From contig CALVJR010000001.1 in the NCBI GenBank assembly GCA_944332295.1, positions 64,585 to 128,584 of the forward strand: a stretch of 64,000 bases of DNA. Reading direction: 5' to 3'. The position numbers and the translations under genes were made by a program. Positions 58,625-64,000 of this stretch are shown here, piece by piece. A model generated the notes under the pieces. That model was given only the letters and a program-made list of their open reading frames with translations. It had not been told where the DNA came from and did not search any database. Each line of letters begins with the position of its first letter. The stretch's first letter is position 1. This DNA is from an uncultured Bacilli bacterium. Its GTDB lineage: Bacteria; Bacillota_I; Bacilli_A; RF39; UBA660.

Positions 58625-59329
58625 ATGGCAATTAATACAGTAAACGTAGAAGCGGAACGAATCTACAAGAAAAAAGTTTTCTCAAAATTAGTAAAAATCG
58701 CGTTCTTACTATTAATTATATTTTTATCTATTGTTTATTTATTTTTGTATATCGTCTACGATGGTGGAAGATTTACCGTATCTTTAGATAAAAATATGTC
58801 CAATAGAAAGAATGTATATTTATCAGAAGATGGAAAAAAGAAATCAAAAACCAGGCAGTTATCAGCAGACACCATAGATTATATGGATAACATTTCAATA
58901 AAGTGGCTTCCTGAAAATATTGATACCGAAGCAACAGGTGCTCATAATGGAGATAACTACATAGCTTATACATTTTATGTTGTAAATGCTGGAGAAGAAC
59001 AAGTACATTATTGGTATGAAGTAGATATAGATGATACAATAAAGAATGTAGATGAAGCTATTCGCATTATGATTTATAGAAATGGAAAACCTACGGTCTA
59101 TGCCAAAAAGAGTAAGGTTACCAATAAAAAGGAACCTGGTACAAAGAAATTTGTATCAAAAGACATAGCTGTTTTGGAACAAAGAAAAAACTTGAAACCA
59201 GGCAGCAAAGATCGCTTTACTATTGTTGTATGGATAGAAGGCGATGATCCAGAATGTAAAAATGACCTACTAGGTGGGGAAATTAAAATGCATATGGATA
59301 TCACAGAAGAACATATAGCAAAGAAATAA
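58625..59329 (+). CDS. Membrane-anchored secreted protein, paralog of the downstream putative fibre subunit
   Basis: 234 aa with an N-terminal anchor (IAFLLLIIFLSIVYLFLYIV) and a beta-rich domain ending ...RFTIVVWIEGDDPECKNDLLGGEIKMHMDI. The next protein shares this motif. Confidence 0.75.
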   Translation: MAINTVNVEAERIYKKKVFSKLVKIAFLLLIIFLSIVYLFLYIVYDGGRFTVSLDKNMSNRKNVYLSEDGKKKSKTRQLSADTIDYMDNISIKWLPENIDTEATGAHNGDNYIAYTFYVVNAGEEQVHYWYEVDIDDTIKNVDEAIRIMIYRNGKPTVYAKKSKVTNKKEPGTKKFVSKDIAVLEQRKNLKPGSKDRFTIVVWIEGDDPECKNDLLGGEIKMHMDITEEHIAKK

Positions 59330-59344
59330 TAAGGAGTGAGAAAA

Positions 59345-60367
59345 ATGAAAAAAGAAGAAAAGCAAAAAAAGAAAAAAAGAAAAATATTGTTATCATTAAT
59401 TATGATATTATTTGTAGGAGTTGTGTTAACAGCCTCAACTTATACATGGTTCACTGCCAATAGAACAGTTACTGTTGACCAACTAGATGTTAATGTTTCT
59501 ACTTCTACAGGTTTACAGATTTCAGTAGATGCTACAAACTGGAAAACATTAATTACAAAAGATGATATTTTAGGAGCACAAGCAAATTACACAAATGCAG
59601 TAAACCAAGTACCAGCTGGACAAACAACACCAGTATCATCAATCGGAGAAGTAGACCCTGCTACAGGTTTTATAAAAATGTTCAAAGGTGAACTTGTTAA
59701 TGATGAAGAAGAAGGTCATTTAGTATTATCTGCAGAACAATCAACAGAAACAAATGGTACAACAGGTGACTTTATTGCATTTGACTTATTCTTCCAAACA
59801 AATGAAGCAATGGAAATTCGTCTAACTTCTAATTCAAATGTAGTTGCTGGAGCAACAGATACATCAATTGAAAATGCTGCACGTGTTGCATTTATACCAC
59901 AAGGTCATGCAGAAGCAGGTACTGCACCAGCTGAAATTCAAGCATTAAAAGCAGCTGACTCAACTGAAGTAAAAATCTGGGAACCAAACTTCGATGTTCA
60001 TACAGCATCAGCAGTAAATAATGCTTGGGATAGTTATCAATTAAGAACACAACAAACAGGAGCAACAAGATTGAAATATTATGGAGTAAAAGCAGATATT
60101 CCTACTGGAGCAAAAATTCCTGTTAACTCTCAAGATCCAACATATTTTGCAGATATGGATACAACATTAGCAGATAGATTACTTTCAACACCAGAATCAG
60201 GAATTCCAACAGATGATTACTTAGAAGTATTAAGCTTAGAAGCTGGAGTTACAAAAGTTAGAATTTATATGTGGGTAGAAGGACAAGATGTAGACTGTGA
60301 AAACTATGCATCAGGTGGAGATTTAGCTTTCAACTTACAATTTACTTCATTAGAAAATGCAGGATAA
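59345..60367 (+). CDS. Secreted T/A/Q/N-rich protein with SipW-cognate-like signal peptide (putative TasA-like fibre subunit)
   Basis: Lys-rich n-region, h-region ILLSLIMILFVGVVL, then TASTYTWFTANRTVTVDQLDV. C-terminus ...VRIYMWVEGQDVDCENYASGGDLAFNLQF. ATG 59345 lies 8 nt after AAGGAG. Confidence 0.75.
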   Translation: MKKEEKQKKKKRKILLSLIMILFVGVVLTASTYTWFTANRTVTVDQLDVNVSTSTGLQISVDATNWKTLITKDDILGAQANYTNAVNQVPAGQTTPVSSIGEVDPATGFIKMFKGELVNDEEEGHLVLSAEQSTETNGTTGDFIAFDLFFQTNEAMEIRLTSNSNVVAGATDTSIENAARVAFIPQGHAEAGTAPAEIQALKAADSTEVKIWEPNFDVHTASAVNNAWDSYQLRTQQTGATRLKYYGVKADIPTGAKIPVNSQDPTYFADMDTTLADRLLSTPESGIPTDDYLEVLSLEAGVTKVRIYMWVEGQDVDCENYASGGDLAFNLQFTSLENAG

Positions 60368-60421: not shown

Positions 60422-60523
60422 ATGGATAATACAAAAGAAATATTAGAATTGTACCAACAAATCGAAAAACATATTCGTTTTCTAGAAAGCAATATAATAA
60501 GTGAGGAAGAGCAGGATGACTAA
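60422..60523 (+). CDS. 33-aa acidic helical micro-protein (MDNTKEILELYQQIEKHIRFLESNIISEEEQDD)
   Basis: Not in the ORF track. AGGAGGG lies 3-4 nt upstream of the ATG (short spacing). Its stop overlaps the next start (ATGACTAA), suggesting translational coupling. Confidence 0.45.
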   Translation: MDNTKEILELYQQIEKHIRFLESNIISEEEQDD

Positions 60524-62171
60524 TGAATTACAAGAACAAATAAAAAAAGAAATAGAAGTAAATGAAAATCATATTAATAACTTCCCATTAGAAACAGAAA
60601 CGGGAACAAAAAAGATGAAAGAGAAATTTCGTCGTAATGCAGTAAAAGAACGAAATGCTTATATAGAAAAAGAGTTAACTAAATTCCAAGAATATCAAAG
60701 AAATACATATCAAGTACTAGATAACTATGTACAATCTAATAAACCAGAAGATAAGAATAACCAATATAACGAAGAACAACAAAAACTAGAAGAATTGTTA
60801 AAAATACTCCCTTTAACAAATGATAAGATATCATTAGAAATGAAATTAGGATATGCTCATATCTTTTATGAATTATCAGAAGAAGCAAGTGCATCTTTAA
60901 AAGTAATCAATTCATGTATTTTAGATTTTATAGAAAAAATGAAAAGTGCACAAATTGAATTAACAATAAATAATTTCAACTATAGTCCATTTACATTATC
61001 ATATATGAGCGCATTATTAAAGAACAAAGATCAAGAAAACTTTGATGATCTTATGCAAGAAAGCTTTAAAAACATCTACTGGGAATGTCCTGAAATAATC
61101 ATGCATATAAAAAGAAATTTATTATATATAGTAAAGAAAAATTATCAAAAATTAAAAGAATATAGCCACACCCTAGGTACCAAAGTAGTGGCAGAAAAAA
61201 ACTTAACCATAAATACAGTTGAAAATGTATATCAAAATACAAGAAGCGAGCTAGAAATAAAAAAAGCAAAAGATGAATATAATAATCTTTACTTATTTTT
61301 AAATAAAAATAAAAATATAGATGATTATATAGAAGGAGCACCTTTACGAAATAAAAGTTTTAATCACTTAGTAATAAAAGAAACATATCAAGACTTAACA
61401 CCAGCGGAAAAAGAAGTTTTTGACAGAGAAATAATTAATTTAGGAAACCATTTACAAGTATTAAAAGAATATTATCGTTATGAAAGTATTGTAAAAGATC
61501 TAATTGAAAGATTTAAGAAAAAAGAAGAGTCAAAAGCAAAGTATATAACGAAAGAAAAAGAAATAGAAACAGAAGAAAAAGCAAGAGAAAAATTGTATAA
61601 GGACTATCAAAAAGCAAATGGTATTGGTCTATTTGCAAGAAAAAATGAAACAAAACAAGCGGAAATCAAAGTAAAAATGAAAGAACAAATCAATAAATTA
61701 GATAAACTATATCAAGAACTAGAAGACTTAGAAATTGATATTAAAATTGCAGAAAATCTAACAGAAGGAAGTAGCATATATGATGCTTTAATTACCAGTT
61801 TAAGTTCTTATACTTATATTGAAAAAGTAATGATAGAAAAATTTAAAGATATTGATGTAGATTTTCACTTAGCTAATTATGTAAAAGAGTATTTAGACTT
61901 TATTTATAATCCAAATGCAGATTTCTTAAGAAAGATAACAGTATTACTAGATTATGATATAGCAGAAGTAATATCAGAAAAATATGAATTATTAGGAATT
62001 CATCTGGATAAAGAAGAAATAAGCCCTGATTCGATTGATAGTGAAATACAAACAGTAAATGTTGTAATACTAGTAAATAATATTAAGGCATCAAATATGT
62101 CCCTTGATCAAATGAAATTAATCTGTGACATCAATAAGATTGACTATAAAATAGAAGAAGAAATTTTATAA
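60516..62171 (+). CDS. 551-aa cytoplasmic, largely helical/coiled-coil protein of unknown function
   Basis: No TM or signal peptide; long Glu/Lys heptad-like stretches. ATG 60516 lies 6 nt after GAGGAAG; the tracked GTG 60501 is an alternative. Confidence 0.75.
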   Translation: MTNELQEQIKKEIEVNENHINNFPLETETGTKKMKEKFRRNAVKERNAYIEKELTKFQEYQRNTYQVLDNYVQSNKPEDKNNQYNEEQQKLEELLKILPLTNDKISLEMKLGYAHIFYELSEEASASLKVINSCILDFIEKMKSAQIELTINNFNYSPFTLSYMSALLKNKDQENFDDLMQESFKNIYWECPEIIMHIKRNLLYIVKKNYQKLKEYSHTLGTKVVAEKNLTINTVENVYQNTRSELEIKKAKDEYNNLYLFLNKNKNIDDYIEGAPLRNKSFNHLVIKETYQDLTPAEKEVFDREIINLGNHLQVLKEYYRYESIVKDLIERFKKKEESKAKYITKEKEIETEEKAREKLYKDYQKANGIGLFARKNETKQAEIKVKMKEQINKLDKLYQELEDLEIDIKIAENLTEGSSIYDALITSLSSYTYIEKVMIEKFKDIDVDFHLANYVKEYLDFIYNPNADFLRKITVLLDYDIAEVISEKYELLGIHLDKEEISPDSIDSEIQTVNVVILVNNIKASNMSLDQMKLICDINKIDYKIEEEIL

Positions 62172-62271
62172 AAGAAACTATTTTAAATAAGAAATGATTT
62201 TAAAAAATAGTTTTTTTTTCTGTGATATGTTATAATAAATTATAAAAGAATAAAGATGGTGTGGTGGAGAA

Positions 62272-63528
62272 ATGAAAACAGCAAAAAAAGTAGTAAAATC
62301 AATTGGTTATTTATTTGTTGGAATGCTCGTTGCTCTATGCATATATACATTTATCGCAACAGATATCTTTAAAAAAGATTATGCCAATGTTTTTGGATAT
62401 ACGTATTTCGTAGTAGCAACTGGCTCTATGTCCGGAACAATTGAAGTAAATGATGTAGTAATTGTCAAACTAGGACAAGATGTAAATGTCAACGATGTAA
62501 TTACTTATCAGGGAGAACAAGGCGAGTTTATTACACATAGAGTAGTAAAAAAGATAGGAAATCAAATTATTACCCAAGGTGATGTAAATAATACAGAAGA
62601 TGATCCTATTACAAAAGATGATGTAGTAGGAACAGTAAAATTAGTAATATCTCCAAGCTCAGTATTAAAATTAATTGCAGTTTTACTGATTGTCTTTATA
62701 CTATTAGCTTTTCTTAATTTTGATAAAATCTTTAAGAAATTTGTAATTGGAGAAGACACAAATACGAAAAAGACAGTAAAAGGCAGTGTACCAGAAGAAT
62801 TATTTACAACAACACCAGTCAAAAAAGAAGAAAAGTCAACCGGAAACACAGTAAATATTCCAATCAGTGAAGTCTTACAAATTCAAAAAGACCAAGAACT
62901 AGCAGAGGTAGAAGATGAAATAGAAGTTCTAGAAGTAGAAGATATTATTGATATTGATGATAATAATATTGTAAGAAAAGAAAGAAATAGTGCCAAAGAG
63001 AAAGAAAAAGAACTTCTAGAGCAAGTCCTAAACTTACTAAGAATTAAAAATGATACGTTAACAATTACTAAAATGAACAAAAAATGGTTAACGAAATATC
63101 AATATGTCTATAAATTAGCGCAAATTTTGTCAATGGGAGATACGAAAGAATTAGAAGAGACAATAATGCATCCTACATTTAAAGAAATTTATGACTATGA
63201 TTTAGAACGTGCAGGACTATATGAGAATCTAAGAAATAAAATCTATGAAATGCCAATCTATGTATTCTTAAGAATCTTAACATTTGCTATTCTTTATAAC
63301 GATCCAACATTTTTTGATGGAGTATATAAAATATTAAAATACAAAGTTCAAATTGATAAAGATAGTCATTTTAAAGAAATAAAGAAAAATGACACTTATG
63401 CTAAAAAACAAATACGTTCTCTAATAGCATTTATGCAAAAAATATCAATTAAATTTGATAATAAAAAAGTATTTGAACTAGAACGTATAGAACGATATGT
63501 AAAACTAAAAAATTATGTAAATCATTAA
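62272..63528 (+). CDS. sipW: Archaeal/ER-type signal peptidase I (S26B, SipW-like) with ~270-aa C-terminal extension
   Basis: TM1, catalytic Ser context VVATGSMSGTIEVNDVVIV, His context EFITHRVV, QGDVNNTEDDP, and a second TM (VLKLIAVLLIVFILLAFL). An acidic linker and a helical domain not found in typical ~190-aa SipW proteins follow. Confidence 0.85.
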   Translation: MKTAKKVVKSIGYLFVGMLVALCIYTFIATDIFKKDYANVFGYTYFVVATGSMSGTIEVNDVVIVKLGQDVNVNDVITYQGEQGEFITHRVVKKIGNQIITQGDVNNTEDDPITKDDVVGTVKLVISPSSVLKLIAVLLIVFILLAFLNFDKIFKKFVIGEDTNTKKTVKGSVPEELFTTTPVKKEEKSTGNTVNIPISEVLQIQKDQELAEVEDEIEVLEVEDIIDIDDNNIVRKERNSAKEKEKELLEQVLNLLRIKNDTLTITKMNKKWLTKYQYVYKLAQILSMGDTKELEETIMHPTFKEIYDYDLERAGLYENLRNKIYEMPIYVFLRILTFAILYNDPTFFDGVYKILKYKVQIDKDSHFKEIKKNDTYAKKQIRSLIAFMQKISIKFDNKKVFELERIERYVKLKNYVNH

Positions 63529-63543
63529 AAGGAGGGAAATGCG

Positions 63544-64000
63544 GTGAAGAAGTTAGAATTAAGAAATTCTGCAATCATAAAAATATCATGTGTCTTCGCC
63601 ATAGTAATTGCTAGTTTTGCGATTATTAATCTCTTCACTGCAACAACAACTCTAAGTAATATTGCCGAAGTCTGGGATGGAGTAGAAGTAGCTACTTCAT
63701 TTTCTGCTGGTAATGGAACGAAAGAAAATCCCTACCAAATAGCAAGTGGAAGTGAACTTGCCTATTTAAAAAAGATAGTAGAAGAAAATCTATTCACAGA
63801 CTTAAAAGAAAAATATTTTGTATTAGCAAATGATATTGACCTAGGAGGTCATGTTTGGCAAGGAATTGGAACAAACAACATAGAAAACCAATTTACAGGA
63901 CATATAGATGGACAAGGATATTCTATTAAAAATTTTAAAATAGAAACACCAACAGTAATAAATAATGTAGATTATTATAGTTTTTTTAACACAGTAGCTG
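63544..64000 (+). CDS. Large surface protein, N-terminal part (3' end beyond window)
   Basis: GTG 63544 lies 7 nt after AAGGAGGG and the frame stays open to the window end. N-terminal anchor IKISCVFAIVIASFAIINLF. Then GTKENPYQIASGSELAYLKKIV...YFVLANDIDLGG..W.GIG....FTGHIDGQGYSIKNF, typical of the start of large beta-helix/GLUG-type surface proteins. Confidence 0.7.
   Translation, partial: MKKLELRNSAIIKISCVFAIVIASFAIINLFTATTTLSNIAEVWDGVEVATSFSAGNGTKENPYQIASGSELAYLKKIVEENLFTDLKEKYFVLANDIDLGGHVWQGIGTNNIENQFTGHIDGQGYSIKNFKIETPTVINNVDYYSFFNTVA

Follow-up and report, generated by a model that had tools for sequence, protein, structure and literature searches.

Signal peptidases are seen as minimal enzymes of the membrane that act on its outer side, and the locus described here raises the question of why one of them should carry a large folded domain inside the cell. 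The window analyzed is a 64,000-nt stretch of DNA from an uncultured Bacilli bacterium (contig CALVJR010000001.1, positions 64,585 to 128,584), and it lies on contig C1 of a 1.71-Mb genome that is 93% complete. Near its end, the window encodes a 418-amino acid (aa) SipW-like signal peptidase, hereafter the long form, in which 270 residues follow the second transmembrane (TM) helix. The long form is a two-part membrane protein, with an endoplasmic reticulum (ER)-type signal peptidase on the outside and an orphan folded module on the inside. The architecture and genomic context of this peptidase and its strongly conserved cytoplasmic module are solid; for the function of the module, we infer a protein-binding role. 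A folded cytoplasmic domain implies that cleavage may be tied to the cell interior, whether through pre-protein delivery, through the site of assembly, or through regulation. Full-text literature searches returned no account of a large cytoplasmic domain on a SipW or an ER-type signal peptidase, and we know of no bacterial system in which such a cytoplasmic link has been described structurally.

The open reading frame (ORF) of the long form runs from an ATG to a TAA with zero internal stops. More than 100 full-length relatives (366–422 aa, 66–98% identity) turned up when 5.8 billion proteins were searched through a word index, and one of them comes from ‘Mycoplasma sp. CAG:877’. Searching a profile of the tail against one genome per prokaryotic species yielded a further 76 long ORFs (380–471 aa, median 417) from 75 genome loci, among which tail identity falls to about 28%. 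All 75 loci come from metagenome-assembled genomes of gut Bacilli that are uncultured and carry the label Mycoplasmatota or Tenericutes, and their sources include humans, ruminants, rabbit, and other hosts. A frameshift that joins two separate genes, which the preliminary description of this locus had raised as a concern, is excluded because full-length homologues, each with the same single ORF, span many independent genomes.

Sequence places the N-terminal part among the ER-type (S26B) signal peptidases with a Ser-His-Asp set, and all such criteria suggest that it is active. A profile of 23 N-terminal domains matches human SEC11C and SEC11A as its best solved relatives (PDB 7P2P and 7P2Q; expectation value (E) of 1e-6), and the SGSM, HR, and GDNN..D boxes of SEC11A/C align with those of the N-terminal domain. 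The three motifs named in the preliminary description, TGSMSG (Ser52), ITHRV (His89), and GDVNNTEDDP (residues 103–112), are all present. Ser52 aligns with the SGSM box, T88-H89-R90 align with IVHRV of SEC11A/C, the base being His and not Lys, and G103, D104, N106, and D110 align with GDNN..DD. In an alignment of 44 long forms, used throughout for residue invariance and for regional identity and charge, S52, M53, T88, H89, R90, G103, D104, N106, and D110 are invariant in all 44 sequences. Foldseek searches with the full-length AlphaFold2 (AF2) model retrieve only clan SF folds, at a probability of 1.00, among them the C-terminal domains of LexA and UmuD, SipA (4n31), SEC11A (7p2p_A, over 143 columns), and SpsB. 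The NCBIfam SipW model (NF046067) matches residues 14–121 (E=1.2e-11), and its score marks the N-terminal part as SipW-like, not as a SipW equivalog. The long form is regarded as a dedicated enzyme because the genome also encodes a LepB-type signal peptidase (151 bits, contig C28) and several further SipW paralogues; the LepB-type enzyme also rules out the long form as the sole signal peptidase of the cell.

A hydropathy scan places TM segments at about residues 12–30 and 128–148. The N-terminus is basic, with four lysines among 11 residues, and the stretch past the second TM segment is likewise basic. Because there are two TM segments with basic flanks, both ends are assigned to the cytoplasm and the catalytic part to the outside, as the preliminary description had proposed for the tail. 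In the full-length model, a conserved juxtamembrane helix with the motif NFDxIFKKY directly follows the second TM helix, and its F150 is invariant.

Beyond this helix, the full-length AF2 model (mean predicted local distance difference test (pLDDT) score of 78.9) places the true flexible linker at about residues 160–189. The linker is followed by a short strand (residues 194–197) and a helix (residues 198–216), both modelled at a pLDDT of about 80–84. The strand motif reads sGLTVTIP in the family and GNTVNIP in the 418-aa protein, with T193 and I196 conserved in at least 90% of the sequences. The remainder is a helical bundle, modelled from 53 aligned tails with a mean pLDDT of 90.6 and a predicted template modelling (pTM) score of 0.89. 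The only strands on the cytoplasmic side of the full-length model are residues 194–197 and 265–268, and the second is missing when the bundle is modelled alone; these two observations suggest that the strands pair. The module is therefore predicted to span about residues 190–418. The acidic stretch noted earlier, ELAEVEDEIEVLEVEDIIDIDDNN (residues 209–232), is present, but the role of linker to a helical region that had been given to it does not hold, as the model shows the acidic loop inside the module. Judged from the alignment, the module is conserved nearly as strongly as the catalytic domain (Table 1). Invariant residues of the bundle are F303, E305, Y309, F348, D349, K353, K356, Y357, D362, F367, and L403.

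The tail is thus greatly expanded, conserved, and of a type without a known match. Residues 151–418 have no match in Pfam (scanned permissively, with E up to 10), NCBIfam, PHROGs, or PADLOC. Against PDB sequences, phmmer gives no match and a profile search gives E of at least 1.5. The bundle fold is likewise unmatched in Foldseek searches of PDB and BFVD (best E about 1, template modelling score at most 0.29), and these domain and fold searches reveal no enzyme, helix-turn-helix (HTH), or nucleotide-binding signature in the module. When 1.84 billion cluster representatives were searched exhaustively with HMMER, only 49 clusters matched the module. Nearly all full-length matches are 350–460 aa long and carry the same N-terminal peptidase, the exceptions being fragments, one apparently chimeric gene call, an unrelated N-terminal region, and one degenerate peptidase. 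By sequence, then, the module occurs almost only as a fusion to this clade of SipW-like peptidases. Its distribution is narrow. In an even sample of the order (401 genomes, 145 genera), the tail is found in 14 genomes from five genera; within the genus of the source genome, 12 of 20 other genomes carry it, and some near-complete genomes do not. The preliminary description had left room for the long form to be a common architecture with a known domain; it is the rule only within a narrow clade, and it contains no known domain. An orphan fold with a confident model also makes a clean target for structural and partner work.

Two variants of the module were observed. A 572-aa metagenomic protein (P0144) contains two tandem copies followed by a C-terminal CxxC...CxxC zinc ribbon, and a second protein (L088 9389-10687) has one copy followed by a C-terminal CxxC...CxxC ribbon. 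Both fit a cytoplasmic, modular binding domain.

Table 1. Features of the long-form peptidase gene and its neighbours within the window. Identity is the mean pairwise identity among 44 aligned long forms.
Feature	Coordinates	Strand	Identity	Basis or remark
p234 and p343, putative substrate/fibre genes	58625..60367	+		Sequence reading, locus comparison
33-codon ORF overlapping the p556 start	60422..60523	+		Small homologous ORFs in most loci
p556, 556 aa, no TM segment, usual upstream neighbour	60501..62171	+		GTG start at 60501
Long-form SipW-like signal peptidase gene	62272..63528	+		Uninterrupted ORF; homologues over the full length in at least 75 genomes
Residues 1-32: basic cytoplasmic N-terminus and TM helix 1	62272..62367	+		Hydropathy, charge; AF2 helix 2-32
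Residues 33-126: extracytoplasmic beta-rich catalytic domain, S26B type	62368..62649	+	0.58	NCBIfam, PDB profile, Foldseek, invariance
Residues 127-160: TM helix 2 and juxtamembrane helix NFDxIFKKY	62650..62751	+		Alignment, hydropathy, AF2
Residues 161-189: variable disordered linker	62752..62838	+	0.29	pLDDT <50; length 6-39 aa
Residues 190-216: conserved strand and helix, first module element	62839..62919	+		AF2 strand 194-197, helix 198-216
Residues 217-238: variable acidic loop	62920..62985	+	0.31	pLDDT <50; negative charge conserved, median net charge -5
Residues 239-418: 8-helix bundle, no known relative	62986..63525	+	0.50	AF2, Foldseek, family searches; net basic, median +6
Giant surface protein, 2,694 aa, start	63544..64000	+		Runs past window end; begins 15 nt after peptidase stop

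The long form sits in a cluster of about 25 kb, which we followed beyond the window end on the same contig. The cluster begins with p234, p343, a 33-codon ORF, p556, the long peptidase, a 2,694-aa surface protein, and p194. It continues with the small secreted proteins p192, p212, and p310, then p352, p513, a DUF2357 protein, and a canonical 196-aa SipW accompanied by another two small secreted proteins. Most of the 75 loci keep the first ten of these items in this order. The closest genomic partner of the long peptidase is the giant protein gene and not p556. Counted over assessable loci only, 68 of 74 have the giant gene as the immediate downstream neighbour, and in 65 of these the gap is -4 to 26 nt; in the window, the gap contains the ribosome-binding site AAGGAGGG. 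The signal end of p343, STYTWFTANR, is TasA-like, and the giant protein, as read from its sequence, carries FTATTTLSNIAEVW. A Pfam search gave no camelysin or TasA match. A comparable arrangement is the sipW-bsaA system of Clostridium perfringens (PMC7395162), a Firmicute in which a dedicated SipW also lies beside polymerising, matrix- or pilus-like proteins. Its SipW is, however, of the ordinary short kind, and the system has no giant protein, p556, or cytoplasmic module.

Our favoured reading, held tentatively and short of calling it probable, is a two-part enzyme with a protein-binding adaptor module. The peptidase, active outside the membrane, would serve the cluster of TasA-like fibre proteins and the giant surface protein, and its gene is probably co-transcribed with, and translationally coupled to, the giant gene. 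Inside the cell, past the second TM helix and a floppy linker, the orphan module of about 230 residues would act as an adaptor that keeps the enzyme in place where proteins are exported or assembled, on the cytoplasmic side. Candidate partners are the basic N-terminal tails of the cluster pre-proteins, one of the cluster proteins, or the general export machinery. A protein-binding adaptor is rated the most likely role for the module because it lacks enzyme, HTH, and nucleotide signatures, because it is found in tandem duplication, and because it is replaceable in sister genera. The fibre cluster itself is probably a means by which these small-genome gut bacteria attach to surfaces or hosts.

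Several observations weigh against this reading. The seven invariant polar or aromatic residues E305, Y309, D349, K353, K356, Y357, and D362 could just as well mark a small-molecule or catalytic site. The N-terminal domain scores only 44.6 bits against the SipW equivalog cut-off of 190 (NF046067), in a protein of 418 aa compared with about 190 aa, so by sequence it falls far below that family. In three genomes from two lineages (L047 in one, L060 and L062 in the other), the long form is intact and retains all invariant residues, and it lies at the same chromosomal place, in reduced surroundings. Searches of these genomes for p556, p234, p343, the giant protein, p352, and p513 came back empty throughout; the positive control genome matched each time. 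Because these three cluster-less genomes keep an intact long form, the role of the module cannot depend strictly on any single cluster protein, which favours a general partner or an autonomous function; the candidates that are left are the general export machinery, the pre-proteins themselves, and an autonomous role in ligand binding or regulation. Finally, a comparison of evolutionary rates across 49 loci, in which the pairs are non-independent, singles out p234 (partial r of 0.56 with the tail, the sole outlier) and not p556 (0.04); this is a weak indication and serves as a lead only.

Two further sets of observations concern the cluster-less loci. In a fourth genome (L048), the long form is found at that same site and a separate cluster lies elsewhere, together with a 685-aa frame containing a p352-like part. 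Downstream of the long peptidase, the cluster-less loci encode a conserved protein of some 105 aa (..YRYLVGGYYG..DEYPLKEF..; L047 10609-10917, L048 10580-10897, L060 8079-8402, L062 11402-11725). Its homologue in the source genome is unlinked (G000:C2:107631-107927), and it weakly resembles the N-terminus of p352 (E=0.006).

The adaptor might instead be a specific docking site for p556, with or without the 33-aa peptide, and would then tether a cytoplasmic scaffold. Linkage speaks for this alternative: p556 lies no more than 3 kb upstream of the long peptidase in 61 of 69 assessable loci, all 14 tail-bearing genomes of the order sample have a close p556 (E at most 1e-148), and within the genus p556 is missing from the genomes that have no tail. 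As read from its sequence, p556 has no TM segment, which would put it on the right side of the membrane. Yet the p556 family is far more widespread than the tail, occurring in 93 of the 401 genomes (54 genera). About 79 of these genomes have no tail, and there p556 lies beside short or differently fused peptidases, such as the 186-aa peptidase of the distant locus L101. The three cluster-less genomes retain the tail with no detectable p556, the rate covariation that remains past phylogeny is negligible, and the two proteins share no domain. Homology between the tail and p556 can itself be set aside, with an hhalign probability of 0.2%. We consider exclusive docking of p556 unlikely. p556 has no Pfam, PDB, or PADLOC match; the length of 551 aa first given for it is counted from the next ATG, and the coiled-coil neighbour reaches 556 aa when counted from the GTG.

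The module could also be a signalling or regulatory device that senses export load or a ligand and controls the expression of matrix or fibre genes. In B. subtilis, a second SipW function is said to map to the short C-terminal tail. Like the long form, the B. subtilis enzyme (ER-type, MEROPS S26B; tapA-sipW-tasA operon) has a small Ser-His peptidase part flanked by one TM helix on each side. It is found among genes of secreted fibre proteins whose signals end in a T-[WY]-x-x-F-type motif, a setting that the putative fibre genes beside the long form would resemble. Terra et al. 2012, as cited in PMC4551309 and PMC13082335, describe it as bifunctional, affecting matrix gene expression besides cleaving TasA and TapA, and this reported second, non-peptidase role is a trait that the two proteins may share. 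The kinship suggested in the preliminary description goes no further than this analogy, as the tails show no sequence similarity: B. subtilis SipW is about 190 aa long with an unrelated tail of about 20 residues, and Bacillus has no counterparts of the giant protein, p556, or p194. Retention of the long form in genomes without the cluster would suit a signalling role, and a ligand could be bound by the invariant polar residues. Nevertheless, the module is unlike any regulator in sequence or fold, signatures of HTH, kinase, GGDEF/EAL, or anti-sigma type are absent, and no regulator gene is consistently adjacent. This makes a regulatory device quite improbable.

A role as the core of a larger complex deserves similar caution. 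By analogy with eukaryotes, the long form could be the core of a multi-subunit signal peptidase complex, in which the module would couple the enzyme to the Sec translocon, to SecA, or to the ribosome so that the 2,700-aa protein is handled co-translationally. p194 would be its partner subunit outside the cytoplasm, as SPC22/23 are for SEC11. p194 is a 194-aa paralogue with a SipW fold, encoded 8.3 kb past the window end (L003 14336-14920; G000:C1 about 136335-136919). It keeps both TM helices, and the Ser, His, and GDxNN boxes are absent in all 13 aligned members. Most loci, those of distant genera included, keep it as the first gene downstream of the giant gene. From its sequence, p194 looks like a pseudo-peptidase comparable to Streptococcus pyogenes SipA or eukaryotic SPC22/23. 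SipA (PDB 4N31), one of the inactive homologues of LepA type, shows that a signal-peptidase fold can take part in pilus assembly, and the present cluster likewise contains a dead paralogue; SipA, in contrast, has no cytoplasmic domain, and the long form retains all catalytic residues. In favour of a complex, p194 occurs order-wide and, of the three cluster-less genomes, two (L060 and L062) still have it beside the long form, the long-form and giant genes are tightly coupled, the closest solved relatives of the N-terminal domain are SEC11A/C of the human complex, and retention without the cluster suits a partner in the general machinery. The resemblance remains one of analogy, as SEC11 crosses the membrane once and has no domain of its own in the cytoplasm. 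In the human complex, the separate subunits SPC12 and SPC25 supply what lies in the cytosol, and the module resembles neither these nor any Sec-binding domain. Moreover, the genome has a normal LepB-type peptidase for general export, and at L047 the long form is kept with no adjacent p194. On balance, a core subunit of this kind seems rather improbable. As a separate observation, p194 ends in an acidic/basic tail.

The replacement of the module in sister genera bears on a broader possibility. At two distant p556 loci, peptidases of 649 aa (L104 1610-3559 (-)) and 659 aa (L108 15670-17649 (+)) belong to the same peptidase clade (N-terminal domain match at E of about 1e-31 to 1e-34) and to the same kind of cluster. 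Like the long form of the window, they carry an acidic linker followed by a big cytoplasmic domain. Their domain is, however, unrelated to the orphan module: it is homologous to p352 (BLASTP E=3e-11 over 203 residues), which is free-standing in the source genome (L003 17229-18287), and a membrane-anchored McrB-like AAA+ protein follows, p513, beside which these peptidases are always found. One genome (G438) contains both kinds of long form. Because at least two unrelated modules have been acquired there, the cytoplasmic end of this peptidase clade appears to be an attachment place for modules, and sister genera with a different domain at the same position offer a natural experiment on the purpose of the tail. 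The peptidase C-terminus might accordingly be a docking platform that ties the removal of signal peptides to machinery in the cytoplasm and into which different genera plug their modules, forming with p194 a multi-subunit assembly machine and a counterpart of the eukaryotic signal peptidase complex. This would possibly be an energy-coupled machine for the processing and assembly of giant adhesins and TasA-like fibres, and we regard it as an appealing but improbable extension of the adaptor reading. Docking of the p352/p513 pair by the tail is unsupported, as the three cluster-less genomes lack both proteins and G438 has both kinds of long form.

An artefactual origin of the long ORF, through a sequencing or assembly frameshift that fuses two genes, or a tail that is a decaying relic, is virtually impossible given 76 single ORFs in 75 independent loci, more than 100 metagenome protein clusters, a tail identity (0.50) near that of the catalytic domain (0.58), and a confidently predicted fold.

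Other parts of the cluster show features of their own. An extended -10 element, TGTTATAAT, is found at 62228-62236, about 35 nt upstream of the long peptidase start, and by this sequence the peptidase and giant gene pair may own a promoter inside the cluster. p234 and p343 share a C-terminal motif composed of a hydrophobic strand, W-x-E-G, acidic residues, a single Cys, an Asn, and GG[DE]. The motif pattern of p352 hints at a degenerate EAL-like domain, but a Pfam search with E up to 10 gave no support, and this reading is rejected. p513 (L003 18290-19831) has a TM helix at its N-terminus and contains, in addition, a coiled coil and a McrB-like AAA+ domain. Its PADLOC match is the candidate defence family PDC-M26A (E=3e-33). 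The DUF2357 (McrC-like) protein is encoded immediately after it (L004 3-974). The trio to which these two genes belong travels with the fibre cluster in distant genomes (L084, L086, L104, and L108), and it may serve either in defence or in the fibre machinery.

In another genus of the same family (G021), a 379-aa protein combines a multi-pass membrane N-terminus with a C-terminal SipW-type catalytic domain (L093 1456-2595 (-)), a further signal-peptidase fusion of an uncommon kind. Further along the cluster of the source genome (L004 968-1558, 1524-2291, 2318-2923 (-)), the canonical 196-aa enzyme is a third SipW with intact boxes and a short acidic tail, and the two small secreted proteins beside it have the TasA-like signal ends NTFAWFTYISKAN and SSYAKYRRQ.

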